A stretch of 64,000 bases of DNA, from assembly GCA_033763895.1 (NCBI GenBank), contig JANRJQ010000010.1:2146-66145 (forward strand), written 5' to 3'. The notes under the pieces are model-generated. The model made no database searches. It worked only from the letters and a program-made list of their open reading frames with translations, and was not told the DNA's origin. Both the position numbers and the translations under genes were made by a program. Positions 1 through 25,313 of the stretch are shown piece by piece. Position 1 is the first letter of the stretch; every line of letters starts with the position of its first letter. Source of the DNA: Chloroherpetonaceae bacterium. Lineage in GTDB: Bacteria > Bacteroidota > Chlorobiia > Chlorobiales > Thermochlorobacteraceae.

Positions 1-657
1 GATTCTCCAAGTGTGGTGCAATCCGGTATGACTGGATTCTCGGAATTCACCATTGGCGCCGATGGGGCGATAAATCCGCTTCCGGTTGAGTTATCTGCAT
101 TCACGGGTGCACGAAGTGCGAATGGGATTCTTCTAACTTGGACTACGGCATCTGAGAAGAATAACTCAGGGTTTGAAGTCCAAAGGAACACAGAACAAGG
201 GGAATGGAAAGCGCTGGGCTTTGTGAAGGGAAAAGGAACGACGACAGAAGCGCAGAGTTATTCTTTCATTGATCGTAGCGTTTCGGGCAAAGTGACCTAC
301 CGATTGAAACAAATCGACTTCGATGGAAAGTTTGAACTTCACCCCACAATTGAAGTGGATGCCGGTTTGCCAAATACCTATGCCTTAAATCAAAACTACC
401 CCAACCCGTTCAACCCAAGCACCACGATTGGCTACCAACTTCCGGTGGCAGGCGCAGTGAGCCTCAAGGTCTATGATGTGTTGGGAAGAGAAGTATCAAC
501 GCTGGTGAACGCAAGCCAAGCGGCGGGGAGCTATCAAGCCAATTTCAATGCAAGCAATGTGTCAAGCGGGGTGTATTTCTACCGGCTTGAAGTCCGCTCG
601 ACTGGCTCGCAAACTGTTAACTTCATGCAAACGAAGAAGATGGTGCTGGTGAAGTAA
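1..657 (+). CDS. C-terminal part of a secreted protein ending in a T9SS (Por) C-terminal sorting domain; the 5' end lies outside the window
   Basis: Frame 1 is open from base 1 (track ORF 13..657). The tail has the typical sorting-domain pattern 'LNQNYPNPFNPSTTIGYQLP...VSLKVYDVLGREV...SGVYFYRLE'. Upstream is an 'LSAFTG...LTWTTASEKNNSGFEVQR' module. Confidence 0.75.
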   Translation, partial: DSPSVVQSGMTGFSEFTIGADGAINPLPVELSAFTGARSANGILLTWTTASEKNNSGFEVQRNTEQGEWKALGFVKGKGTTTEAQSYSFIDRSVSGKVTYRLKQIDFDGKFELHPTIEVDAGLPNTYALNQNYPNPFNPSTTIGYQLPVAGAVSLKVYDVLGREVSTLVNASQAAGSYQANFNASNVSSGVYFYRLEVRSTGSQTVNFMQTKKMVLVK

Positions 658-2581: not shown

Positions 2582-4243
2582 GTGGAGCGTCGAGATTTCT
2601 TGAAATTAGCCGGATTAGGAGTCTCCGGCGCAGCATTAACCAGCCTGACTTCACTTCCTACCTTCGCTAAAGAAATTCCTGTTGAACAGTCTCTTGCCTC
2701 ACTTGCCGATTTCGTCGATGTGAAAAAATTGAGCGATGCCGCACTTTCAGCGGCCAAAGCTGCTGGTGCCACTTACTGCGATGTTAGAATCGGTAGATAC
2801 CTCAATCAAGCAGTGTTTACGCGCGAAAACAAAGTGCAGAATGTAACCAATACCGAATCGATTGGAGCAGGGATTCGCGTCCTTGCCGGTGATAAAGCCA
2901 CGTGGGGCTTCGCGTCAAGCAACGATTTATCGCCTGAAGGCATCGCCCGAACTGCACGCGCAGCAGTGGCTATTGCAAAAGCCAATTCACGCATTCAAAC
3001 CGATCCTGTGAAGCTTGCACCGACACCTTCGCTCGGAGAGGTTTATTGGAAAACCCCAATCGAAAAGAATGCCTTCGAAGTGCCAATGAAAGAAAAGGCC
3101 GATCTTTTGCTTTCGGTCAACGCCGCTGCAATGAAAAATGGAGCACCGTTTGTGACTTCATTTGTCTTTTGCATCAACGAACAAAAATATTTTGCCTCAA
3201 GCGATGGCTCCTACATTTCGCAAGATGTGCATCGCTTGTGGCCGGCGGCTTTTGTCAATGCCGTGGATCAAACCTCTGGAAAGTTTGAAACCCGCAGTGC
3301 GCTCTCTTCACCCGTCGGAATGGGTTGGGAGTATCTCTCCGGTCGGAAGGAAGGCAAATTTGCCGGGCCTCAAGGCACCGTAACGCGTTACGGAAAGTAT
3401 TATGATATGGTCGAGGATATTGGGAATGCCGCCATTTTGGTAAGAGAAAAACTCAGCGCGAAGTCGGTTGAAAAAGGCAAATATGACCTCGTACTTGACC
3501 CGTCACACTTATGGCTGACAATTCACGAATCCGTCGGTCATCCGCTTGAACTCGACCGTGTGCTCGGCTATGAGGCCAATTATGCGGGAACGAGTTTCGC
3601 GACACTTGACAAGTTAAAATCGGGCAACTTCAAATATGGCAGTAAGCTCGTTAATCTCTTTGCCGATAAAGTTCAACCCGGTTCATTGGGTGCGGTGGGT
3701 TACGACGATGAAGGCGTAAGCACCAAGCGATGGGATTTGGTGAAGGAAGGAACGCTTGTAAACTATCAAGCCATTCGTGATCAAGTTCATATTCTAGGGC
3801 AAAACGAATCTCACGGTTGCTGTTACTCGCAAAGCTGGGCTGATGTACAATTCCAACGCATGCCTAATGTCTCGCTTGCTCCCGGAAAGAAAAAACTTTC
3901 GGTAGATGAATTGATCAAAGATGTGAAGAAAGGAATTTATATCGTTGGCGATGGCTCCTTCTCCATCGATCAGCAACGCTATAATTTCCAATTTGGCGGA
4001 CAGCTTTTCTACGAAATTAAAAATGGAAAAATCACCGGAATGCTCCGCGATGTGGCTTATCAATCCAATACGCAAGAATTCTGGAACTCGTGTGCAGCAA
4101 TTGCGGACGACCGCGATTTCAGGCTCGGCGGTTCATTCTTCGACGGAAAAGGGCAGCCCTCGCAATCAAGCGCGGTTTCTCACGGGTCTTCAACCACCCG
4201 CTTTAATGGGGTCAATGTGATTAACACATCTCGCAAAATTTAA
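2582..4243 (+). CDS. TldD/PmbA-family metalloprotease (TldD-type) with a twin-arginine (Tat) signal peptide
   Basis: 553 aa with a GTG start preceded by GGAGG. The N-terminus 'MERRDFLKLAGLGVSGAAL...TFAKE' is a Tat motif. It also has the TldD zinc motif 'HESVGHPLELD' and 'GYEANYAGTSF'. Confidence 0.9.
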   Translation: MERRDFLKLAGLGVSGAALTSLTSLPTFAKEIPVEQSLASLADFVDVKKLSDAALSAAKAAGATYCDVRIGRYLNQAVFTRENKVQNVTNTESIGAGIRVLAGDKATWGFASSNDLSPEGIARTARAAVAIAKANSRIQTDPVKLAPTPSLGEVYWKTPIEKNAFEVPMKEKADLLLSVNAAAMKNGAPFVTSFVFCINEQKYFASSDGSYISQDVHRLWPAAFVNAVDQTSGKFETRSALSSPVGMGWEYLSGRKEGKFAGPQGTVTRYGKYYDMVEDIGNAAILVREKLSAKSVEKGKYDLVLDPSHLWLTIHESVGHPLELDRVLGYEANYAGTSFATLDKLKSGNFKYGSKLVNLFADKVQPGSLGAVGYDDEGVSTKRWDLVKEGTLVNYQAIRDQVHILGQNESHGCCYSQSWADVQFQRMPNVSLAPGKKKLSVDELIKDVKKGIYIVGDGSFSIDQQRYNFQFGGQLFYEIKNGKITGMLRDVAYQSNTQEFWNSCAAIADDRDFRLGGSFFDGKGQPSQSSAVSHGSSTTRFNGVNVINTSRKI

Positions 4244-4246
4244 ATC

Positions 4247-5890
4247 ATGAAGCGAAGAGATTTTATAAAACTTTCCGCCTTAGGGCTTGGCTCAGCTGCC
4301 TTGGTAAGTCCCGTGCTTTCAAAGCCGTTTGAAAAATCGGTTGATGAATCGCGCCTAAAGGAAGCAACACTTTCAGCGGTCGATAAAAAGAATTTGGCAA
4401 CTGTGGCACTCACTGTCGCGACTTCCTCCGGAGCTTCATATGCCGATGTCCGTTTGGGAATGTATCTCCGCCAAGCCATCAACACCCGCGAAAAGCAAGT
4501 GCAAGGCATTCAAAGCGGCGAGTCGCTCGGTGCCGGGGTTCGTGTGATTGTGAACGGCACGTGGGGATTTTCATCCACCAACGATCTCACCGCCGATGGC
4601 ATCGCCAAAGCAACTCGCGGCGCAGTAGCCATTGCAAAAGCGAATTCTCGCATACAAACCGAGCCTGTTAAACTTGCGCCCACTAAAGGTTTGGGCGAGG
4701 TGTCGTGGAAAACACCGATTTTGAAAAATGGATTTGATGTTCCCATTAAAGAAAAAGTAGAGGTATTGCTTAGCGCCAATGCTGCAGCAATGACTGCCGG
4801 GGCGAGCTTTGTGAATTCACAACTCTTCCTGATTAATGAGCAAAAGTACTTTGCTTCGACCGATGGCAGTTTCATTGATCAGGATATTCACCGAATATGG
4901 CCAAATTTCTCTGTCACCGTTACTGATGGACCGGGCAAATTTGAGACTCGCTTGGCGCTCAGTGCCCCTTCAGGAATGGGCTATGAGTATTTGGATAATA
5001 ATGCCAAACCGGCACTTACCACTGCGCTTGACTTGTACGACAAGAGATATAATATGATTGCCGATGCTCGTGATGCCGCCAAACAAGCCAAAGAAAAGTT
5101 AAGAGCAAAGTCGGTGGAAAAGGGCAAGTATGATTTGGTTTTAGACCCAACGCATCTTTTTCTTACTATTCATGAATCTGTTGGTCATCCGCTTGAGCTA
5201 GACCGCGTCCTTGGCTATGAAGCCAATTATGCCGGTACAAGTTTTGCTACGCTTGATAAATGGAAAACCAAAAAGTTTAATTACGGTAGCCCCATAGTCA
5301 ATTTCTTTGCGGATAAAACTCAGCCCGGTTCGCTTGGCTCTGTCGGTTATGATGATGAAGGCGTGCAATCCAAACGCTGGGATTTGGTCAAAGACGGCGT
5401 GCTTGTCAACTATCAAGCGACGCGCGATCAAGTTCACATTATCGATCAGAATGAATCACACGGTTGTTCTTACGCCGATAGTTGGAGCAGCGTGCAATTT
5501 CAACGCATGCCCAATGTTTCACTTGCGCCCGGAAAAAAGAAGATTACCCCAATGCAAATGATTAAAGATGTTAAAAAAGGCATCTACATTGTTGGTCGTG
5601 GGTCATATTCCATCGACCAGCAGCGATATAATTTCCAATTTGGTGGGCAGCTTTTTTATGAAATCAAAGATGGGAAAATTGCAGGGATGCTGAAAGATGT
5701 GGCTTATCAATCCAATACACAAGAGTTTTGGAATTCGTGCAGTGCACTTTGTGATGAGCGCGACTACCGTCTGAATGGATCGTTCTTTGACGGCAAAGGT
5801 CAGCCATCCCAAGTGAGTGCCGTCTCGCACGGCTCGCCCACGGCCCGCTTTAACGGAATCAATGTTTTGAATACAGGACGTAAAATCTAA
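4247..5890 (+). CDS. TldD/PmbA-family metalloprotease (TldD-type) paralog with a Tat signal
   Basis: 547 aa. It has 'MKRRDFIKLSALGLGSAAL', 'HESVGHPLELD', and a C-terminal half that is collinear and mostly identical to 2582..4243. It starts 3 nt after the previous stop. Confidence 0.9.
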   Translation: MKRRDFIKLSALGLGSAALVSPVLSKPFEKSVDESRLKEATLSAVDKKNLATVALTVATSSGASYADVRLGMYLRQAINTREKQVQGIQSGESLGAGVRVIVNGTWGFSSTNDLTADGIAKATRGAVAIAKANSRIQTEPVKLAPTKGLGEVSWKTPILKNGFDVPIKEKVEVLLSANAAAMTAGASFVNSQLFLINEQKYFASTDGSFIDQDIHRIWPNFSVTVTDGPGKFETRLALSAPSGMGYEYLDNNAKPALTTALDLYDKRYNMIADARDAAKQAKEKLRAKSVEKGKYDLVLDPTHLFLTIHESVGHPLELDRVLGYEANYAGTSFATLDKWKTKKFNYGSPIVNFFADKTQPGSLGSVGYDDEGVQSKRWDLVKDGVLVNYQATRDQVHIIDQNESHGCSYADSWSSVQFQRMPNVSLAPGKKKITPMQMIKDVKKGIYIVGRGSYSIDQQRYNFQFGGQLFYEIKDGKIAGMLKDVAYQSNTQEFWNSCSALCDERDYRLNGSFFDGKGQPSQVSAVSHGSPTARFNGINVLNTGRKI

Positions 5891-5921
5891 TAACAATTTT
5901 TTCTTAACGATTAATCGCTTT

Positions 5922-7262
5922 TTGAAAGCAATGCCAATACTAACCAAAGAAGAAGCACAAGCGATTCTGAGTAAAGCGCTTGGGTACTCCAAAGCGCCGG
6001 AGTGCGAAGTGAATTTGGGCGGAAGCGTCGGCGGAAATATCCGTTACGCGCGAAACACCGTTTCCACGAGTGGTGAAAATAGCAACATGACACTTGTGGT
6101 TCAATCCAAATTTGGAAAGAAAACCGGAACAGCAACCGTCAATGAATTTACCGATGCTGCCATTGAACGCACCGTTCGCCGGGCTGAAGAGCTTGCGCAG
6201 CTTGCACCTGAAAACCCCGAAGCGATGCCGCTTTTGGGTCAGCAAAAGTATCTTGAATCGGTCACAGCATTTGCATCAACCGAGGGGATTACGCCGGAGT
6301 ACCGTACCAAAGTGGCTGAAGACAGCATTATACCCTGCACCGGAAAGGATTTACAAGCGGCGGGGTTTTTGGATCACGATACCTCATTTGGCGCAGTTGC
6401 CAATTCAGCGGGGCTTTCACTTTATCAAAAATCGACCAGTGTTGAGTTTACACTTACCGTTAGAACCACCGATGGCACCGGCTCGGGGTATGTTACTCGA
6501 GACTACAACGATGTCTCACAGTTTAACTCAGCAGCGGCTTCGCAAGTCGCCATCGAAAAAGCGCTTCGTTCACGCGAAGCCAAAGCCATCGAGCCGGGGA
6601 AATACACCGTCATTCTTGAGCCTGCCGCTTTGCTTGCCAATACTGATGCAAGTCTTATTGGCGCAATGATTAACGCAATGGATGCTCGCAGTGCTGATGA
6701 AGGCAGAAGTTTCTTCTCAAAAAAAGGCGGAGGAAATAAAATCGGTGAGAAATTTATCGACGAACGTATCAGCGTTTTTTCCGACCCAACCAATAGTGAT
6801 ATTCCTTCAACCCCTTGGGTAGGCGACGGTCGCCCGCGTGAAAAAACCACTTGGGTTGAAAACGGTGTGCTTCAAAATCTTTTCTACTCGCGCTATTGGG
6901 CTGAAAAGAAAGAAAAGAAATCGATTGCCCCGCCCGGCGGCATCATCATCCCCGGGACAAATGCGAGCCTTGAAGATTTGATTAAAGACACGAAAAAAGG
7001 AATTCTAATTACTCGGTTGTGGTATATCCGTCCGGTGGACCCGCAAACCTTGCTTTACACCGGGCTCACGCGCGACGGAACATTCTTTATCGAAAATGGA
7101 AAAATCGCTTTCCCAATTAAAAACATGCGCTTCAATGAAAGCCCCATCATTATGCTCAATAACCTTGAAGCCTTGGGTAAGCCGGTTCGAATGGCAGGGA
7201 ACATGATTCCGCCGATGAAGATTCGGGATTTCACTTTTGAAAGCCTTTCAGACGCAGTCTAA
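5922..7262 (+). CDS. TldD/PmbA-family protein (PmbA/TldE-type), with no signal peptide
   Basis: 446 aa. The likely true start is the ATG at 5931 ('MPILTKEEAQAIL'). It lacks HExxxH, as PmbA/TldE proteins do, and has a conserved 'GLTRDGTFFIENGKI' C-terminal region. No hydrophobic N-terminus. Confidence 0.85.
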   Translation: MKAMPILTKEEAQAILSKALGYSKAPECEVNLGGSVGGNIRYARNTVSTSGENSNMTLVVQSKFGKKTGTATVNEFTDAAIERTVRRAEELAQLAPENPEAMPLLGQQKYLESVTAFASTEGITPEYRTKVAEDSIIPCTGKDLQAAGFLDHDTSFGAVANSAGLSLYQKSTSVEFTLTVRTTDGTGSGYVTRDYNDVSQFNSAAASQVAIEKALRSREAKAIEPGKYTVILEPAALLANTDASLIGAMINAMDARSADEGRSFFSKKGGGNKIGEKFIDERISVFSDPTNSDIPSTPWVGDGRPREKTTWVENGVLQNLFYSRYWAEKKEKKSIAPPGGIIIPGTNASLEDLIKDTKKGILITRLWYIRPVDPQTLLYTGLTRDGTFFIENGKIAFPIKNMRFNESPIIMLNNLEALGKPVRMAGNMIPPMKIRDFTFESLSDAV

Positions 7263-7272
7263 CTTTCATTAA

Positions 7273-7305
7273 AGTCGGCTACAGTGCAGGTAGCCGACTT
7301 TTTTT
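7273..7305 (+). terminator. Rho-independent terminator splitting the TldD/E block into 3+2 genes
   Basis: Perfect 10-bp stem AGTCGGCTAC / GTAGCCGACT with a 7-nt loop, followed by a T-run (7299-7305). Confidence 0.7.
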
Positions 7306-7334
7306 AGTATTCATAAATCAACAACCATTTATAC

Positions 7335-8960
7335 ATGCAGCGACGCGATTTTTTAAAAGTAACCGCCTTTGGTGCCGGTGCCTTGATGTTGCCGAAATAT
7401 GCAGTAGCCTCCGTCATCGAGCCTGAAGCGGCTTGGATGGACGCTTCCCAAAAGAAAAAACTGGCAGATATCGCATTAAACGAAGCAAAAACACAAGGCG
7501 CAACTTATTGCGATGTCCGGCTCGGCCGTTACCTCAATCAATTTATTTTTGCTCGGGAAGATAAAGTTCAGAATGTGGTGGATACCCTCTCTGCCGGAAT
7601 CGGAATCAGGGTGATTGCAAACGGTACGTGGGGCTTTGCTTCTACCGACGATCTCTCGTCCGAAAGCGTTGCCAATGCCGCAAAGGAAGCTGTGATGATT
7701 GCAAAGGCAAATTCAGTCTATCAAACTGAGCCTGTCAAACTTGCCCCGCAAAAGGGTGTGGGTGAGGTTGTCTGGAAAACCCCGATTGAAAAAGATGCAT
7801 TTAAGATTCCCATCAAAGACAAAGCGGATTTGTTATTAAAGGCAAACGCAGCAGCAATGAAAAAGGGAGCCAACTACATCAACTCGGTGCTCTTCTTTGT
7901 CAATGAACAAAAATACTTTGCCTCAAGCGATGGCTCCTACATCGATCAAGATGTGCACCGCACTTGGCCAACATTTCAAGTAACCTGTATCGACGAAAAA
8001 ACCGGAAAATTTCAGACTCGAGACTCCCTTTCCGCTCCAATGGGAATGGGCTATGAATATCTCGATGGCAAATCATCCGAGAAATTAAAAGGCGTAACCA
8101 CCAACTATCGCAATAGTTACGATATGGTGGAAGACGCTTCGAACGCTGCGCTTGAAGCGAAATTGAAACTTAAGGCGAAATCGGTTGTGGCAGGGAAGTA
8201 CGATCTCGTGCTCGACCCTTCACACCTTTATCTCACCATTCACGAATCCGTTGGCCATCCACTAGAGCTCGACCGTGTTTTGGGGTATGAGGCCAACTAC
8301 GCCGGAACAAGTTTTGCAACCCTCGATAAATGGAAAACGAAATCGTTCAAATATGGTAGCCCAATCGTAACGCTCTTTGCTGATAAAACACAAAAGCACT
8401 CGCTTGGCGCCGTCGGATACGACGATGAAGGCGTACCCACAAAAAGGTGGGATTTGGTGAAAGATGGAATCCTTGTCAATTATCAAGCCATTCGCGATCA
8501 GGTTCAAATCATCGATCAAAATGAATCTCACGGCTGCTGTTATGCCGATAATTGGGGATCAGTCCAATTTCAACGTATGCCCAATGTGTCGCTTGCGCCG
8601 GGGAAAAAGAAACTTGCGGTCAGTGAAATGATTAAAAATGTTGAAAAAGGAATTTACATCCTTGGCGCAGGATCCTACTCTATCGATCAACAACGGTATA
8701 ACTTCCAATTCGGTGGCCAACTTTTCTATGAAATCAAAAATGGAAAAATTGGTGAAATGCTCAAAGATGTGGCCTATCAATCCAATACGCAAGAGTTTTG
8801 GAATTCATGTGTGGCCATCTGCGATGAAAAGGATTACCGCCTTGGCGGAACCTTCTTTGATGGAAAAGGACAGCCGGGGCAAATCAGCGCGGTTTCTCAC
8901 GGCGCTTCAACCGCCCGCTTTAACGGAGTTAATGTGATCAATACTGAACGCAAAATTTAA
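7335..8960 (+). CDS. TldD/PmbA-family metalloprotease (TldD-type), third paralog with a Tat signal
   Basis: 541 aa. It has 'MQRRDFLKVTAFGAGALML...AVASV', 'HESVGHPLELD', and is collinear with the other two TldD copies. Confidence 0.9.
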   Translation: MQRRDFLKVTAFGAGALMLPKYAVASVIEPEAAWMDASQKKKLADIALNEAKTQGATYCDVRLGRYLNQFIFAREDKVQNVVDTLSAGIGIRVIANGTWGFASTDDLSSESVANAAKEAVMIAKANSVYQTEPVKLAPQKGVGEVVWKTPIEKDAFKIPIKDKADLLLKANAAAMKKGANYINSVLFFVNEQKYFASSDGSYIDQDVHRTWPTFQVTCIDEKTGKFQTRDSLSAPMGMGYEYLDGKSSEKLKGVTTNYRNSYDMVEDASNAALEAKLKLKAKSVVAGKYDLVLDPSHLYLTIHESVGHPLELDRVLGYEANYAGTSFATLDKWKTKSFKYGSPIVTLFADKTQKHSLGAVGYDDEGVPTKRWDLVKDGILVNYQAIRDQVQIIDQNESHGCCYADNWGSVQFQRMPNVSLAPGKKKLAVSEMIKNVEKGIYILGAGSYSIDQQRYNFQFGGQLFYEIKNGKIGEMLKDVAYQSNTQEFWNSCVAICDEKDYRLGGTFFDGKGQPGQISAVSHGASTARFNGVNVINTERKI

Positions 8961-8968
8961 AATCAAGA

Positions 8969-10297
8969 ATGGCAATACTAACAGAAAGCGAAGCAAAACG
9001 CATCCTTGAGAAAGCGCTCAGTTTCTCAAAGGCTGATGAATGCGAAGTCAATTTAGGTGGTGGAAAAAGCGGCAACATTCGCTATGCACGCAACACCATC
9101 TCAACAAGCGGCTCACAAAATAGTATCTCGCTTGCAATCCAATCCTCTTTCGGCAAACGCACCGGCAACGTCACGACCAACGAATTGACAGACGATGCCA
9201 TTGAAAAGGCCGTTCGCCGTTCCGAAGAGCTTGCAAGGCTTGCGCCGGAAAATCCTGAGTTTGTCAAAAACTTGGGTAAGCAAACCTATCTGACTTCCAA
9301 AACACATTTCGAAAGCACCGCAGCCATTACGGCGGAGTATCGCTCAAAGGTTGCTGCAGCGGGAATCACGGCCTGTAAAGCCAATGGAAATCTGACCGCG
9401 GCAGGATTCTTTCAAAACAACGAGTATTTCCAATCGATGGCCAATTCTTCGGGAGTTTCGGCTTATCAATTAGGAACCAATACCGAGTTTAATCTCACGG
9501 TTCGTACCAACGATGGTACTGGGTCCGGCTATGTTTACCGAGATGTGAACGACATTGCTCAATTCGATGCAGCCGTGGCTTCTCAAATTGCGATTGAAAA
9601 AGCCTTGCAATCGCGTGAACCCAAAGCCATTGAACCCGGAAAATATACCGTCATTTTAGAACCCTCGGCGCTTGTTTCCGATGAAGGACTTTTGAATCAA
9701 ATGATGTTTAATATGGATGCCCGCAGTGCCGAAGAAGGAAGAAGCTTCCTTTCAAAAGCCGGTGGGAAAACCAAATTAGGCGAAAAGTTGATTGATGAAC
9801 GCATCACTATTTACTCCGACCCAACCCACCCCGATGTTCCCGCTCAAACGTGGAGTGGCGATGGGAGGCCACAAGAAAAAACTGTTTGGATTGAAAAGGG
9901 TGTAGTAAAAAATCTTTTTTACTCGCGCTATTGGGCTGAAAAAAAAGGAGTAAAAGCAACACCATTTCCAAGCAATATTATTATCGACGGTGGCACGGCA
10001 TCAATCGAAGATTTAATTAAAGATACCAAACGTGGCATCTTGGTCTCACGCCTGTGGTACATTCGCGATGTTGATCCGCAAACCTTGCTTTACACAGGCC
10101 TTACGCGCGATGGGACGTTTTTTATTGAAAACGGAAAAATCGCACATCCAATTAAGAATTTAAGATTCAATGAGAGCCCGATTATTATGCTCAATAATTT
10201 GGAAGCTTTAGGCAAACCAATGCGAATGTTGGGCAATTGGATTCCGCCGATGAAAATTCGGGACTTTACCTTCACCAGTCTTTCCGACGCGGTTTAA
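8969..10297 (+). CDS. TldD/PmbA-family protein (PmbA/TldE-type), second paralog, with no signal peptide
   Basis: 442 aa. 'MAILTESEAKRILEKAL' has no hydrophobic leader. It is collinear with 5922..7262 and starts 8 nt after the TldD stop. Confidence 0.85.
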   Translation: MAILTESEAKRILEKALSFSKADECEVNLGGGKSGNIRYARNTISTSGSQNSISLAIQSSFGKRTGNVTTNELTDDAIEKAVRRSEELARLAPENPEFVKNLGKQTYLTSKTHFESTAAITAEYRSKVAAAGITACKANGNLTAAGFFQNNEYFQSMANSSGVSAYQLGTNTEFNLTVRTNDGTGSGYVYRDVNDIAQFDAAVASQIAIEKALQSREPKAIEPGKYTVILEPSALVSDEGLLNQMMFNMDARSAEEGRSFLSKAGGKTKLGEKLIDERITIYSDPTHPDVPAQTWSGDGRPQEKTVWIEKGVVKNLFYSRYWAEKKGVKATPFPSNIIIDGGTASIEDLIKDTKRGILVSRLWYIRDVDPQTLLYTGLTRDGTFFIENGKIAHPIKNLRFNESPIIMLNNLEALGKPMRMLGNWIPPMKIRDFTFTSLSDAV

Positions 10298-10333
10298 TCC
10301 TGCTGCTTGTATGTTTCAATTCAGAGAATAAAA

Positions 10334-10364
10334 AGAGGCTGCACATTGCAGCCTCTTTGTTTTT
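10334..10364. terminator. Bidirectional rho-independent terminator between the convergent TldE and dut genes
   Basis: 10-bp stem AGAGGCTGCA / TGCAGCCTCT with a 3-nt loop, flanked by an A-run upstream and TTGTTTTT downstream. Confidence 0.65.
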
Positions 10365-18825: not shown

Positions 18826-21800
18826 TTGCCCAAAAAGAATATGCCCAAAACGAAACCAAAAAAAAGCGAGGCCGGAGTAAAATACGAGCAAGCCAAACCG
18901 GAAAAAAAATCTCGGCGTGAACCAAAAAAAAGTGCGGTTCAAAATGGCCATTTAAACCGTGTAAGTAATTCAATGAAAGCTGTAATGAAAGAAGCTGTAA
19001 AACCCGAGTCTAATTGGGATGTAAAAAAGGGTGATATTTTCATCAAAGGTGCCAGAACGCACAATCTGCGGAATGTCGATGCGCTTTTTCCACGCGGAAA
19101 GTTAATTGTGGTTACAGGTGTGAGTGGTTCGGGGAAATCAAGCTTAGCGTTTGATACACTTTATGCAGAAGGGCATCGGCGTTATGTAGAGTCAATGTCG
19201 TCTTACATTCGTCAGTTTTTAGAGCGTATGCCCAAGCCGGATGTGGATTACATTCAAGGAATCGCTCCGGCGATTGCAATTGAGCAGAAAACAATTTCTA
19301 AAAACCCTCGTTCCACGGTTGGTACAATTACTGAAATTTATGATTACTTAAGACTACTCTTCGCAAGAATTGGAAAAACCTATGCCCCTGATACCAATGA
19401 AATGGTTCAAAAACATACACCTGATGATGTTCTTCTCCAATTAAAAATTTTTTCGGAAGGGGCAAAATTTTATGTGTGTTTCCCTATTCCACATCATCAC
19501 GATGAAAAAGATAAAGAACGAACTTTTGAAGAAGAACTTCAAACGCTAAAACAAAAAGGATTTTATAGGCTTGTTTCCAGTATCAAAGCCGGAAATGAAC
19601 TTTTTGATTTAAGCGACCCTGAATCAGAAAAAAAATTACTCAAGCTTACTAAATCAGAGAAAGGGCAATTGCTGATTGTTGCCGATCGATTGATTTTACG
19701 CCACACAGAGGAATTACTTTCACGTGTTTCTGAAGCGGTTGAGTCTGCGTTTCGGGAATCCTACGGCTTTTGTACCATTCGAATTGAAATAAATGGAAGT
19801 TACCGAGATCTTTCTTTTAGCGATAAGTTTGAGATTAATGGGGTTGAATATGAAGAACCTTCGCCCCAAATGTTTGCCTTTAATTCTCCGGTTGGGGCTT
19901 GCCCGAAATGTCAGGGGTTTGGGCGTGTGGCGGGTATTGACGAAGATGCCGTAATTCCTAATCGTGCACTGGCTTTGCGCGATGGAGCAATTGTGGCGTG
20001 GAGTGGTGAAAAACACTCTAAACATTTCTTCGACTTAATTCGAATTGCACCTAAGTACGGAATTGACTTAGGAACGCCATACTCATTGCTGCCCACTGTG
20101 GCAAAAAAGATGATTTGGGAGGGAATTCCGAGCGAAAAGTTTATTGGGTTAAATGCCTTTTTCAAATTCATCGAAAAAGAAAGTCTGTACAAAATGCATT
20201 ACCGCGTCTTCTTGAATCGATTCCGTGGCTATTCGACCTGTCCGGAATGTGGCGGTTCAAGGCTTAAGAAAGACGCGCTTTACGTGAAAATTGGAGGTAA
20301 GAATATCGCCGATATTGTTCAAATGACGATTTCGGAGGCAATTGAATTTTTCAAAGCAATCGCGATTTCTCCCTTTGATCGTGAAGTTGCAAAAACACTG
20401 CTCAACGAAATCCAAAAACGCTTGCAATATCTTTTGGAAGTTGGGTTAGAATATCTCACGCTCGATCGACCTGCAAATACCCTCTCAGGCGGTGAATCGC
20501 AAAGAATTAATCTTGCCACTTCTTTAGGTTCATCGCTCGTTGGATCAATCTATATCCTCGATGAGCCTTCGATTGGTTTACATCAACGCGATTCCGCTCG
20601 GTTGATTACGATATTGAAAAAACTACGTGATATTGGAAATACAGTAATTGTTGTTGAGCACGATCGCGAGATTATGGAAGCGGCCGATGTCATTCTTGAC
20701 TTGGGTCCGAAAGCCGGCAGATTAGGTGGTGAACTTGTTTTTCACGGTACGCATTCACAAATTCTTACCGCTCAGCATACACTCACCGGGAAGTATCTGA
20801 GAAATATCAACGAACTGCCTTACCCTGAAAAGCGAAGAAATGTCAAGCTTTCCAATGCCTTGGAAGTAGAAGGAGCTATGGAAAATAACTTGAAAAATAT
20901 TTCAGTCAAGTTTCCTTTAGGGGTTATGACCTGCGTAACCGGAGTCAGCGGGTCGGGAAAATCGACTCTGGTTGGGGATATTCTTTACCTTGGTCTCTTA
21001 AAGCAAAAAGTAGGCACGGCCGAGAAAGTAGGAACTCACAAAGCGCTTAAAGGAGGAGAAAAAGTGAGTAAAGTAGAATTGGTTGATCAATCGCCAATTG
21101 GAAGAACAAGCCGAAGCAATCCGGCAACCTATCTTAAAATATTTGATGATATTCGCACCCTTTACGCTCAAACTCAGGTTGCAAAATTAAAAGGCTGGGA
21201 TGCCGGATATTTTTCATTTAACATTCCGGGTGGCCGCTGCGAAACTTGTGCCGGTGAAGGGTCCGTTCATGTTGAAATGCAGTTTCTTGCCGATCTTGAT
21301 ATCCCTTGTGAAGCGTGTGGAGGAAGGCGATATAAAGAAGAAACACTTTCAGCGGTTTATAAAGAAAAGTCAATAGCGGATGTATTAGAAATGACAATTG
21401 CAGAAGCCCTTAGCTTTTTTTCTGAACACAAAAATATCAGCAAAAAACTTCAGATTCTTGTCGATGTCGGGCTTGGTTATTTGCAAATGGGACAGTCGGG
21501 AAGCACGCTTTCTGGTGGCGAAGCTCAACGGTTAAAATTAGCCTATCATATCTCAAGTGCAGAATCAAAAGAGGCACTCTTTATCTTTGATGAACCAACA
21601 ACCGGGCTTCACTTCGACGATATTCAAAAACTCTTAAAATGCTTTAATCGCTTAATTGAGCAGGGTAATACTTTGGTGATTATTGAACATAATCTGGATG
21701 TCATTAAACAAGCCGATTGGGTGATTGACCTTGGCCCTGAGGCTGGTGATAAAGGGGGGGAGATTGTGGCTGAAGGAACACCCGAAGATATCGCAAAAGC

Positions 21801-21855
21801 AAGGCATTCACTTACAGGAGCTTATCTCAACGAATACTTGTCTGTAAAGAAATGA
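18826..21855 (+). CDS. uvrA: Excinuclease ABC subunit A (start uncertain: TTG 18826, ATG 18841 or ATG 18973)
   Basis: 1009-aa ORF. The conserved core begins near 'IFIKGARTHNLRNV'. It has two ABC modules (GVSGSGKSS / GVSGSGKST; LSGGESQR / LSGGEAQR) and CxxC zinc-finger pairs. The first ~50 aa are a Lys-rich low-complexity region. Confidence 0.9.
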   Translation: MPKKNMPKTKPKKSEAGVKYEQAKPEKKSRREPKKSAVQNGHLNRVSNSMKAVMKEAVKPESNWDVKKGDIFIKGARTHNLRNVDALFPRGKLIVVTGVSGSGKSSLAFDTLYAEGHRRYVESMSSYIRQFLERMPKPDVDYIQGIAPAIAIEQKTISKNPRSTVGTITEIYDYLRLLFARIGKTYAPDTNEMVQKHTPDDVLLQLKIFSEGAKFYVCFPIPHHHDEKDKERTFEEELQTLKQKGFYRLVSSIKAGNELFDLSDPESEKKLLKLTKSEKGQLLIVADRLILRHTEELLSRVSEAVESAFRESYGFCTIRIEINGSYRDLSFSDKFEINGVEYEEPSPQMFAFNSPVGACPKCQGFGRVAGIDEDAVIPNRALALRDGAIVAWSGEKHSKHFFDLIRIAPKYGIDLGTPYSLLPTVAKKMIWEGIPSEKFIGLNAFFKFIEKESLYKMHYRVFLNRFRGYSTCPECGGSRLKKDALYVKIGGKNIADIVQMTISEAIEFFKAIAISPFDREVAKTLLNEIQKRLQYLLEVGLEYLTLDRPANTLSGGESQRINLATSLGSSLVGSIYILDEPSIGLHQRDSARLITILKKLRDIGNTVIVVEHDREIMEAADVILDLGPKAGRLGGELVFHGTHSQILTAQHTLTGKYLRNINELPYPEKRRNVKLSNALEVEGAMENNLKNISVKFPLGVMTCVTGVSGSGKSTLVGDILYLGLLKQKVGTAEKVGTHKALKGGEKVSKVELVDQSPIGRTSRSNPATYLKIFDDIRTLYAQTQVAKLKGWDAGYFSFNIPGGRCETCAGEGSVHVEMQFLADLDIPCEACGGRRYKEETLSAVYKEKSIADVLEMTIAEALSFFSEHKNISKKLQILVDVGLGYLQMGQSGSTLSGGEAQRLKLAYHISSAESKEALFIFDEPTTGLHFDDIQKLLKCFNRLIEQGNTLVIIEHNLDVIKQADWVIDLGPEAGDKGGEIVAEGTPEDIAKARHSLTGAYLNEYLSVKK

Positions 21856-24800
21856 AGCACTTGCATGAAGAAATTGAAATAACACAGCGGCTTTTTGAAC
21901 TTTGGAAAAAAATGCGCCGGAGAATTTGGGAAACAGGCATACTTCAAGTTCTAATGGCGGCTTTGGTAGTGCTTTTCTGTTTTGGTTTAACCGAGTGGAT
22001 TTTTGAGTTTGGTCGGATTGGGCGAGGGTTTTTATTGATTCTTGTACTGACTTCTGTTGCGAGTGCATCGATATACTTTTTATTTCGCCCATTAAAGAGA
22101 TTCCCTTTTAACCGCGAAAGAATGGCCAAACTTATTGGGAATATGATTCCTGAAATAGGCGATAAACTGATAAATGCGTTACAAATCTATCAAGAGTCTC
22201 CTGAGAATGCATTTTCAAGGGCGGCACTGATTTCTGCTTATCAATCTGCTTCTCTATTCAACTTCCAAGCCAAGGTTTATGATGATCGATGGTTCCGAAA
22301 ATTTGGCCCAAGTGTCTTAAGCCTTTCTCTTTTTTCATTATTGCTTTTTCTACCGCCGATTCAACTTTCAGAGCCGTTAAAGCGAATTCTATTTTTTTAT
22401 GAGCACTTTTCACCGCCTGAGAAATTTCAATTAAAAGCGCTTTCTGGAGATTTGGAAGTATTGGCAGGGAAGGAGGCGGTTCTTCAATTTACGATAGTTT
22501 CACTTTTGGAGGGAGTCGACGACTCACCGCCCCACGAAATGAAGATTTTTTTAGTGAATAAAGATGGATTTTCATTCGCGGAGCAGGCGCTTATTGCCGA
22601 TAGTAGCGGCAAATTTAACTTTAAAATGCGATCCGTTAAGGAAGCGCTTCATTATTACGGCGTAGCAAAACTGAACGAAAAAAAAACAATCACAAGCGAC
22701 ACTCATCGCATTGCTCTTTTACAAATTCCTTCGGTTAATTTCTTTCAACTATCCATTAAGCCACCCGGCTATACCGGTTTGCAGCCTGTTAAAATTGAAC
22801 CGAATTTTGGCGATGCCACTGTGATAAGAGGTTCAGAAATTGAATTAAACTTGCGTGCTTCAACAGCGTTATTGAAAGCACGAACCATCATCGATTCCCC
22901 GCTCCCTGATGTGATTGAAATGAGTGTCCGTTCAGATTCTGCCAAAGTAAAACTTTCTATCCGTGAAAATACCACCTATCGTTTTTTGATTGAAGATAAA
23001 AATGAAGTTAAAGGTGAACTTTCTCCGAAGTATCAAATTAAAGCAATAGGTGATAACCCTCCGGAACTAAAAGTTGTAGCACCCTCAACGCCTGAATTCG
23101 ATATTCCCCAATCAATGAAGCTACCCGTGATTGCAAACCTTCGCGATGACTTCGGCTTCAGTCGTTTCTCTCTTTTTTATCGCAATTCAAAATCAAATTA
23201 TAAAGAGCCGGAACAGTTTTATTCCGAGTTAATTCTATCACTTGAATCAGCTGAAGGAAGTAAAACAGAAAAGAGAATCAATTACCAATTCGATCTCTCT
23301 AAAATTCAAATTTCAGAAGGTGATGAATTAGAATTCTATCTCCAAGTTTGGGATAACGATGCGGTTTTAGGATTTAAATCAGTAAAAAGTGAAACTTTCA
23401 AATTAAGACTGCCAACGCTTGATGAACTTTATACTGAAGTCGAAAAAGAAGAGGAAAGCATCTTAAAAAATTTAGATGACAAAATTGAAAAGGCAGCTGA
23501 ATTGCAACGCGAATTAGAAGCAGTTCAAGATGAACTGCGCCAAAAAGTTCAATCCGATTGGCAAGATCGAAAAGCAATTGAACAAGCGATGCAAAAACAA
23601 AAGGAATTGCAAGCGAGCATTGAGGAAGTAAAAAATGAAATGCGTGAGATGCTCTCCAAAGCAGAAGAGCGCGAATTGCTTTCCGAAGAAACATTGAAAG
23701 AATATGAAGAGGTTATGAAATTGATGGATGAAGTGAAATCTGCTGAAATTGAAAAGGCAAGGGCTGAAATGGAAAAGGCGCTCTCTCAGATGAATGAACA
23801 AAAAATGAGAGAAGCATTAAAAAATTTTTCAATGAATGAAAAGAAATTGAAAGAAGTGCTTGAGCGAACAAAAGAATTGCTTACCCGAAAACAGATTGAG
23901 CGCAAAATTGATGAAATGATAACGAGAATGGATGCCCTCTCAGAAAAGCAAGATAAACTCCAACTAAAAACAGAGCGTGAACTTTCACAACCCGCAAAGT
24001 CAGAGAAAGTGCAGGAAGAAAAGGCGGCATCCCTTGCTCAAGAGCAAGAAAAATTGAAGCAGGAGTATCAAGAGCTTCAAGCACAAAACGAGGAATTAAA
24101 GTCGCTTATGCAATCGTATCCGAAGCAAGATAAACTGCCTACAAAGGAACAGCAGGATTTTGAAGAGGAAATGAAGTTTCAAGATGTCACGCGTGAGATG
24201 AATGAAGCAGCAAAAGAAATCAAAGAGAGAAAACTTGAAAGTGCCAAAGAGAAGCAGCAATCTGTACAAGCGAAAATGAAATCTCAAAAAGACCGCCTTG
24301 CATCAATGAAAAGGGAAGTCACCAAACAGCGTAAAGAGGAAGTTTTGGATGCAATGCAAAATCTCGCTCATTCTGCTCTTGAACTCTCTTTGGAACAGGA
24401 AGAATTACGAGGCAATATTGATGAACCTGATATGAATGCCGGCACGGAAGAAATGCGTCAAAAGGCAGCAGGGCAACAAGAGCTTTTGGAATCACTTCGC
24501 CAAATGCAACAATCAATTTCGAATGTTGGAAAAAAATCATCTCAAGTAAGGCAAGAACTTTCAGAATTGCTTCAAAAGGCTGCAAGCCAAATGGAGGCTT
24601 CGATTCGTCAATTGGAAAATCGCAACACACCGGCTGCGCAGCTTGAAATGCAATCGGCAATGCAAAACTTGAATGAATTCGCTAGTCGATCCGCGGAAAT
24701 GATGGCTGCGATGCAAAATCAAGGTCAAGGCGGTGAAGGAGGAGGAGAAGATGGCGAAGATTTGGGCGAATCAATGAATGGTCTCGCGGGCGAACAAGGT

Positions 24801-25313
24801 AAATTAAATGAACAGACTCAAGAAATGGGAAGTCGAGAAGAGCAAAGCAAGTCCGAAAGAATGTCTCAACTTGCGGCACAACAAATGGCTCTGAAAGAAC
24901 AGTTGGAAGGAATTCGTCAAAGGCAAAAGCAAAAAGAAGAAAAAGCGTCAAAAGATGGAAAACCTTCCTCACAAGAGCTTTTAGGGAACCTTGATGAACT
25001 GGCAAGCGAGATGGAACAAACCGCAAAAGAATTGGCGCAAAATCAATTCAATAAGGAACTTGTTTCACGCCAACAAAAAATTCTAACAAGAATGTTGGAA
25101 TCAACCCGTTCTCTTCAAAAGCGTGAGGAAGAGGAGCAACGAGAAGCGAAAAGCGCAAAAAGTATCTTTAAACGATCGCCGGCTGAACTGCCAAAAACGC
25201 CCCCTCCGAACCGACTCCGAGATGCCCTTAAACGTCTAAAAGAACAGGGCTTTACTGAAGATTATGAAAGAATCATTAGGCGCTATTACGAAAAAATCGA
25301 TCAAACTTTATAA
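21852..25313 (+). CDS. Large membrane-anchored coiled-coil protein (DUF4175-like architecture); function unknown
   Basis: 1153 aa. Two N-terminal hydrophobic helices are followed by a ~450-aa globular region and then ~600 aa of E/K/Q-rich heptad-like sequence. The ATG overlaps the uvrA stop (ATGA). The family assignment is from memory of the architecture only. Confidence 0.5.
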   Translation: MKHLHEEIEITQRLFELWKKMRRRIWETGILQVLMAALVVLFCFGLTEWIFEFGRIGRGFLLILVLTSVASASIYFLFRPLKRFPFNRERMAKLIGNMIPEIGDKLINALQIYQESPENAFSRAALISAYQSASLFNFQAKVYDDRWFRKFGPSVLSLSLFSLLLFLPPIQLSEPLKRILFFYEHFSPPEKFQLKALSGDLEVLAGKEAVLQFTIVSLLEGVDDSPPHEMKIFLVNKDGFSFAEQALIADSSGKFNFKMRSVKEALHYYGVAKLNEKKTITSDTHRIALLQIPSVNFFQLSIKPPGYTGLQPVKIEPNFGDATVIRGSEIELNLRASTALLKARTIIDSPLPDVIEMSVRSDSAKVKLSIRENTTYRFLIEDKNEVKGELSPKYQIKAIGDNPPELKVVAPSTPEFDIPQSMKLPVIANLRDDFGFSRFSLFYRNSKSNYKEPEQFYSELILSLESAEGSKTEKRINYQFDLSKIQISEGDELEFYLQVWDNDAVLGFKSVKSETFKLRLPTLDELYTEVEKEEESILKNLDDKIEKAAELQRELEAVQDELRQKVQSDWQDRKAIEQAMQKQKELQASIEEVKNEMREMLSKAEERELLSEETLKEYEEVMKLMDEVKSAEIEKARAEMEKALSQMNEQKMREALKNFSMNEKKLKEVLERTKELLTRKQIERKIDEMITRMDALSEKQDKLQLKTERELSQPAKSEKVQEEKAASLAQEQEKLKQEYQELQAQNEELKSLMQSYPKQDKLPTKEQQDFEEEMKFQDVTREMNEAAKEIKERKLESAKEKQQSVQAKMKSQKDRLASMKREVTKQRKEEVLDAMQNLAHSALELSLEQEELRGNIDEPDMNAGTEEMRQKAAGQQELLESLRQMQQSISNVGKKSSQVRQELSELLQKAASQMEASIRQLENRNTPAAQLEMQSAMQNLNEFASRSAEMMAAMQNQGQGGEGGGEDGEDLGESMNGLAGEQGKLNEQTQEMGSREEQSKSERMSQLAAQQMALKEQLEGIRQRQKQKEEKASKDGKPSSQELLGNLDELASEMEQTAKELAQNQFNKELVSRQQKILTRMLESTRSLQKREEEEQREAKSAKSIFKRSPAELPKTPPPNRLRDALKRLKEQGFTEDYERIIRRYYEKIDQTL

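Follow-up and report, generated by a model that had tools for sequence, protein, structure and literature searches.

An array of TldD/TldE (PmbA) genes from a Chloroherpetonaceae bacterium with twin-arginine leaders on the catalytic subunits and leaderless non-catalytic partners

A 64,000-nucleotide (nt) stretch of DNA from a Chloroherpetonaceae bacterium (assembly GCA_033763895.1, contig JANRJQ010000010.1, positions 2,146 to 66,145; hereafter the window, within which positions are counted) carries an array of five TldD/PmbA genes on the forward strand. Three encode TldD-like catalytic subunits (D1, D2 and D3) and two encode TldE/PmbA-like proteins (E1 and E2); all five proteins matched the PmbA_TldD_1st, 2nd and 3rd domains (Pfam PF01523, PF19290 and PF19289). 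D1 (2582..4243, +; 553 amino acids, aa), assigned from its open reading frame (ORF) and Pfam domains, has a GTG start with GGAGG 8 nt upstream. It is followed after 3 nt by D2 (4247..5890, +; 547 aa) and, after a further 40 nt, by E1 (5931..7262, +; 443 aa from ATG). An alternative E1 start, a TTG at 5922, lies in a frame that is also open and would shorten this spacer to 31 nt. The ATG at 5931 was chosen because the resulting N-terminus, MPILTKEEA, matches the conserved start of the homologues. D3 (7335..8960, +; 541 aa) and E2 (8969..10297, +; 442 aa) are separated by 8 nt. An intrinsic-terminator-like hairpin with a 12-bp stem and a T-run (7271..7301, +) lies between E1 and D3, and a bidirectional terminator-like hairpin (10332..10358, assigned to neither strand) lies 3' of E2. 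The array consists of two predicted transcription units, D1-D2-E1 and D3-E2, parted by the first hairpin. A preliminary description of this DNA had given the same order, TldD-TldD-TldE, terminator, TldD-TldE. Its spacers of 3-31 nt agreed with the D1-D2 and D3-E2 distances; for D2-E1 the upper figure applies to the TTG alone.

The three D proteins are 67-69% identical to one another and E1 is 68% identical to E2, while D and E share ~22%. Judged by these identities the duplicates within each type are old, as had been suggested. A search of the window's genome for TldD/PmbA genes outside the array returned none, leaving only these five.

All three D proteins begin with a twin-arginine (RR) leader of the kind recognized by the twin-arginine translocation (Tat) system. 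Each reads M(E/K/Q)RRDF(L/I)K, followed by a hydrophobic stretch rich in Gly, Ala and Ser and then a small-residue site. The D1 leader MERRDFLKLAGLGVSGAALTSLTSLPTFA (2582..2668, +) runs from MERRDFLK to TFA, with K next; the D2 leader MKRRDFIKLSALGLGSAALVSPVLS (4247..4321, +) from MKRRDFIK to VLS, again with K next; and the D3 leader MQRRDFLKVTAFGAGALMLPKYAVA (7335..7409, +) from MQRRDFLK to AVA, with S next. The first 40 aa of each protein were scored with TIGR01409 (cut-off 16.7 bits), and Pfam TAT_signal (gathering score 22.7) was also applied. D1 (23.9 bits) and D2 (21.1 bits) passed TIGR01409 and D3 (15.9 bits; TAT_signal 19.0 bits) came just under, in keeping with the leaders that the preliminary description had given for all three. 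N-termini of this kind are very rare in the genome. Of its 2,774 ORFs with 150 aa or more, 8 have RRx[FL][LIVM] and then an uncharged hydrophobic stretch at the N-terminus; three of these are D1-D3, and one is clearly a false positive from a membrane protein. In a structure model of D3, residues 1-31 were of low confidence and lay ahead of the first helix of the folded domain. The genome also encodes a Tat translocase, with TatC matched at 210 bits and TatA at 71.7 bits.

The E proteins lack such a leader. Neither signal model matched E1 or E2, both of which have polar starts. A stop codon lies a few codons upstream of each E start and closes its frame, which excludes a hidden leader on E. The earlier observation of a leaderless TldE pair was thus borne out, and no missed in-frame signal lies upstream of either gene.

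This division between D and E extends far beyond the window. A single homology search gave at least 8,000 matches to the subfamily; the 120 listed were ~70-83% identical, and Rufibacter, Fibrisoma, Runella, Larkinella, KSB1 and 'Chlorobiales' metagenome-assembled genomes (MAGs) are among the sources named. The hosts belong to Bacteroidota (including the Chlorobi-type group of the window), KSB1, Acidobacteriota and some Gammaproteobacteria. In a scan that took one genome for each species, at least 596 relatives were confirmed (596 of the 600 matches listed), and from these 77 loci were kept as the comparison set to which the D and E counts refer. These loci represent Cytophagales, Flavobacteriales, Chitinophagales, Sphingobacteriales, Chloroherpetonaceae/Thermochlorobacteriaceae, Acidobacteriota and gammaproteobacterial MAGs. 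Every D gene with enough flank was followed by E, or by a second D and then E, the exceptions being a few trailing extra D genes. The median D-to-E gap was 33 nt.

Across the comparison set, 122 D leaders carried RR (111), RK (9) or RS (2), all at the same position. The E proteins started with M-A-I-L-T/S-x-EEA and were leaderless without exception (111/111). A few E genes have in-frame start codons further upstream; the resulting extensions are not signal-like and overlap the preceding gene. The same arrangement was retained in a sister subfamily (52-56% identity, four genomes), with an RR-bearing D beside a leaderless E. What had been noticed at a single locus therefore holds throughout the 77 loci. 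A natural D-E fusion with one leader, which would have demonstrated joint travel of the two subunits, was not seen among the best 150 of 6,781 matches in a library of 1.84 billion proteins, the longest of which had 558 aa. The TldD/TldE (PmbA) subfamily to which the array genes belong is very large, widespread and strongly conserved, at ~70% identity across phyla, and has so far not been studied.

The catalytic features of TldD are confined to the D proteins. HESVGHPLELD begins at aa 315 in D1 (HESVGH at nt 3524-3541, +), aa 309 in D2 (nt 5171-5188, +) and aa 303 in D3 (nt 8241-8258, +), as the preliminary description had stated. With E. coli TldD from MG1655 as the alignment reference, its H262, E263, H267, E270, D272 and R362 were invariant in 126/126 D proteins. 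HExxxH was absent from E1 and E2 and from all E proteins of the comparison set (0/111). The third-ligand site reads F-D-G-K-G-Q-P in 125/126 D proteins, with no equivalent of Cys454; in D1 the Asp of this DGKGQ motif is encoded at nt 4142-4144 (+). Direct pairwise alignment of Cys454 to D3 was ambiguous by 1-3 residues, and the assignment was made through intermediate relatives. Related representative clusters read x-C-G-K-G-Q-P at this site, so the Asp occupies the Cys position. It is therefore likely that Asp, in place of the E. coli Cys, is the third ligand of the metal in D. Asp in place of Cys has been mentioned for some TldDs (Ghilarov et al. 2017, PMC5810440). The exchange was ruled out as a hallmark of exported TldDs by leader-bearing representatives that keep the Cys (P0126, P0136 and P0153); Asp is consequently not needed for export.

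Comparison with known structures placed both subunits within the TldD/TldE fold at a considerable distance. By sequence, D3 is no more than a remote relative of E. coli TldD (phmmer E = 7e-15), and E2 is nearest to structure 1VPB (BT3649; E = 1e-18). The best 16 structural matches to the D3 model were all TldD or TldE, the top one being E. coli TldD (5NJ5_A; E = 3e-27, template modelling (TM) score 0.69). The window proteins share with E. coli TldD/TldE (PmbA; PDB 5NJ5 series) the three-domain fold, the pairing of catalytic with non-catalytic paralogues, and the restriction of HExxxH, E270, D272 and R362 to D, with E lacking a metal site. They differ in several respects. Identity to the E. coli proteins is only ~20-25%, and they are not NCBIfam equivalogs, scoring 67-77 bits against a cut-off of 513 for NF008006 (TldD) and 40-55 against 438 for NF008268 (PmbA). 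The D family has a 6-residue insert after HExxxHxxExD. D in the window carries a Tat leader and is likely periplasmic, in contrast to the cytoplasmic E. coli protein. Finally, E. coli tldD and pmbA are unlinked, whereas the window genes are adjacent and multiplied, and the family is linked to DUF4159 and MoxR genes.

In E. coli, activity requires both TldD and TldE, which form a stable, hollow heterodimer that processes microcin B17 and CcdA (PMC5810440). We propose, with a probability of about 60%, that D and E assemble with their metal in the cytoplasm, cross the inner membrane by the Tat pathway on the leader of D, and trim unfolded peptides in the periplasm. Before export, D and E would fold, take up metal and close into a hollow heterodimer, as their homology to the E. 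coli enzyme suggests. TatABC would then move the assembled pair over the inner membrane through the D leader, E travelling as a hitchhiker. Once in the periplasm, the pair would act on unfolded peptides, whether it is free or stays tethered to the membrane through the leader. That D and E form a heterodimer, that export depends on Tat and takes E along, and that unfolded peptides are the substrate are all predictions from sequence comparison.

Several observations point in this direction. The presence of a leader on D only suggests that an assembled pair would be carried on it. Since the genome has no other TldD/PmbA gene, a leaderless E would otherwise be without a catalytic partner in the cytoplasm. 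The leader split throughout the subfamily, the presence of TatA and TatC, and the lack of other TldD/PmbA genes together make D-E co-export the best reading. Distances among D proteins also correlated with those among their adjacent E proteins (r = 0.84), and the correlation dropped to 0.60 after E was swapped between units of one locus. This argues that duplication took place as D-E pairs, with each E diverging alongside its own D. The co-export of D-E heterodimers claimed in the preliminary description thus gains support of a comparative kind.

Tat hitchhiker co-export, reportedly described by Rodrigue and colleagues in 1999, provides the closest analogy. In HybO/HybC (hydrogenase-2) and DmsA/DmsB (dimethyl sulfoxide (DMSO) reductase), as in the array, an RR leader on one subunit is paired with a leaderless partner encoded adjacent to it. 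A cofactor-containing complex is assembled before export in those systems, and presumably also in that of the window. They differ in that the cargo here would be a protease shell, as opposed to a redox enzyme, and in that co-export of D-E is a prediction. We know of no dedicated chaperone for D-E.

A number of points weigh against co-export of the pair. The D-E interface, the dependence on Tat and the location of E are each predictions. The D3 leader falls just short of the TIGR01409 cut-off, and Pfam TAT_signal gave D1, D2 and D3 16-19 bits, under the gathering score. The catalytic domain of the D3 model is of low confidence, with a predicted local distance difference test (pLDDT) score below 50 over approximately residues 298-421. 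E. coli TldD and TldE each homodimerize in vitro, and an active TldD homodimer has been reported from Sulfolobus (PMC5810440 cites both). Extra D genes without an E of their own recur in several lineages, where they form their own clades and keep all catalytic residues; examples are third copies in five loci (L049, L055, L061, L068 and L076) and the first D of D-D-E units in five others (L046, L077, L078, L079 and L059). Together with the D:E ratio of 3:2 in the array, this recurrence indicates that D may not always need E.

Start codons also differ between the two types of gene. Half of the D genes lack ATG (53 TTG and 9 GTG among 122, with GTG in D1 of the window), and the partner E genes start with ATG in 111/111 cases. 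This contrast might set the D:E ratio, with E in excess.

The alternative that survives best has D alone exported. E would serve as a cytoplasmic escort or cap similar to the TorD/DmsD-type Tat chaperones and be released at the translocon, so that the periplasmic enzyme would be a D-D homodimer or a heterodimer of D paralogues. We regard this as unlikely, though it would readily accommodate the 3:2 ratio, the recurrent D-D-E units and trailing E-less D genes, and the intact catalytic residues of every extra D. An excess of E, as the start codons could mean, would also suit an escort. The formation of TldD homodimers in vitro and the reported activity of the archaeal one also fit; the E. coli TldD homodimer is unstable, however, and TldD is inactive without TldE (PMC5810440). 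E is moreover conserved about as strongly as D and has co-diverged with its own D, which a permanent structural partner explains better than a transient escort, and no known Tat chaperone has the PmbA/TldD fold.

It is far less probable that E enters the periplasm independently of D, through an unrecognized signal or another route. The conserved M-A-I-L-T/S-x-EEAK start (111/111) could in principle hold targeting information; this N-terminus is polar and acidic, however, with neither a hydrophobic core nor RR, it was matched by no signal model, and in alignment it falls where the folded PmbA domain begins. Just as improbable is that the RR leaders are not working Tat signals and that D and E remain in the cytoplasm or on the cytoplasmic face of the membrane as in E. 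coli: the sub-threshold TAT_signal and D3 TIGR01409 scores and the RK and RS variants would allow it, but RK variants are known natural Tat motifs, D1 and D2 pass TIGR01409, such N-termini are rare in the genome, and the motif, hydrophobic region and small-residue site are kept at the extreme N-terminus of more than 110 proteins from several phyla.

The genomic context of D-E links the subfamily to a further set of genes. When all neighbours in the 77 loci were clustered, six families proved to be conserved, and they follow D-E in a fixed order: DUF4159 (family b; 206 aa), MoxR AAA_3 (a; 331 aa), DUF58 (c; 298 aa), a BatA_N membrane protein (d; 414 aa), DUF4175 (e; 743 aa) and a membrane protein with no Pfam match (f; 580 aa). 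Each was found in 33-49 of the 77 loci, and most Bacteroidota loci have them adjacent to D-E. DUF4159 and MoxR adjoin D-E in 44-49 of the loci and also in two sister genomes of the window's genome (G001 and G002), both of which keep the order D-E-b-a. The genome of the window has b (70% identity) and a (67%) on contig C8 and e and f on contig C10, apart from the array. A search of this genome gave no match for the BatA_N family and only weaker matches for DUF58 (26-34% identity).

The set resembles the MoxR-DUF58/von Willebrand factor A (vWA) 'Bat' operons in that D-E is followed by DUF4159, MoxR (AAA_3), DUF58 and BatA_N in most Bacteroidota loci and in the sister genomes. It differs from them in having DUF4159, DUF4175 and the 580-aa membrane protein instead of BatB-E, and the module genes of the window's genome are not adjacent to the array. 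D3 is the orthologue of the D protein in the D-E-DUF4159-MoxR unit of G001 (100/100 support). In that genome, which belongs to a sister genus, a D-D-E unit lies on a different contig from D-E-b-a; the array of five genes thus brings two separate units together locally. A clear orthologue was found for D3 only, and D1 and D2 were not placed with the D-D-E units of Cytophagales.

D and b were also found in the same genomes. Among 40 relatives, the 11 further genomes from the window's family all had D, as did one from a neighbouring family; D was present in 0/25 and 0/3 genomes of two other families of the order. DUF4159 of the b type occurred in exactly the D-bearing genomes. We take the window's family to be aerobic or microaerophilic and the families without the D-E system to be strict anaerobes. 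In an even sample of 151 genomes from the phylum, the close D subfamily was present in 9 genomes from 6 families and b in exactly those 9, b being absent from the 4 genomes with only the divergent D subfamily. This scattered distribution and the perfect match of b with D argue for a functional tie, with the qualification that related genomes are not independent.

DUF4159 itself may provide a clue to the compartment. The b orthologue in the window's genome (C8:288278-289000) has its own twin-arginine leader, as do those in G001, G002, G003 and G005. In the window's family the protein has a 36-residue N-terminal extension with MKRRDFLK or MTRR(D/E)FL, a hydrophobic stretch and ANA; three such leaders gave 16.6, 15.1 and 22.1 bits with TIGR01409 (cut-off 16.7). 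This RR leader is restricted to the window's family. Elsewhere b is leaderless and starts at FFFTRLQY, in 48/48 Bacteroidota and in the five other families sampled from the phylum. The window's genome also has a second DUF4159 paralogue (C12:52998-53702), with a Sec-type leader. DUF4159 thus looks extracytoplasmic in the window's family, and the RR leaders and the Sec-type leader of the paralogue would point to the periplasm for the linked proteins. A difference in compartment is unlikely for orthologues that are 70% identical, and the leaderless b proteins elsewhere may hence be exported as passengers.

The b proteins are ~70% identical across phyla, with invariant DDCNHDIDGLF, ELNGWGDD and SNKDYGCEWDYDFRNKR, including two invariant Cys. 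A structure model of b matched only 4I66, whose function is unknown, and, weakly, ThuA-like proteins, a comparison that offered no clue to its role.

In the reading preferred here, the D-E pair probably acts together with DUF4159, MoxR, DUF58, BatA_N, DUF4175 and the membrane protein. The possible export of leaderless b as a passenger is the basis for a further reading, conceivable though doubtful, in which D-E is the exported part of a conserved eight-gene envelope system comprising D, E and these six families. One D leader would then carry both E and the leaderless DUF4159 of Bacteroidota, and cytoplasmic MoxR/DUF58 would act before export as an assembly or metal-loading/proof-reading chaperone. 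The window's lineage would have given DUF4159 its own RR leader and could then have moved its gene away from D-E.

To our knowledge, TldD/TldE has been described only from the cytoplasm, as the E. coli 'pencil-sharpener' protease, and what it does in general is still not clear. Searches of the literature returned no work relevantly coupling TldD or PmbA with a twin-arginine/Tat signal, MoxR or DUF4159. New here are a Tat-leader variant of TldD, both within the TldD/E protease and as a Tat hitchhiker system, and an uncharacterized conserved partner module. If co-export of D-E is correct, a large periplasmic branch of TldD/E would exist, many environmental bacteria would have the enzyme in their cell envelope, and a protease shell would join the short list of Tat hitchhiker cargos. 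The co-occurrence of D-E with the DUF4159/MoxR set, seen in all genomes sampled, offers a testable route to the function of the protease and of several DUFs.

The array is flanked by genes for a protein with a type IX secretion system (T9SS) tail, a desaturase, a response regulator, a dUTPase and an S9 peptidase. The preliminary description had taken the nearby secreted peptidase genes (S9 and T9SS) as a hint of extracellular peptide processing; neither is conserved beside D-E in the 77 related loci. The S9 peptidase, T9SS protein, response regulator and desaturase were each rejected as functional partners, as none recurs beside D-E in these loci. The T9SS protein is represented by its C-terminal part with the Por_Secre_tail domain (window 1-657, +) and runs off the start of the window. 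Elsewhere in the window's genome, tatC is followed 270 nt downstream by a MoxR (AAA_3) paralogue in the same orientation (C4:266834-268875, minus strand). The window itself contains a DUF4175 gene (21852-25313, +; 1,153 aa) that overlaps by 4 nt the end of a gene for a UvrA-like ATP-binding cassette (ABC) ATPase (18826-21855, +); DUF4175 is one of the families found in the D-E-linked operon of Bacteroidota.

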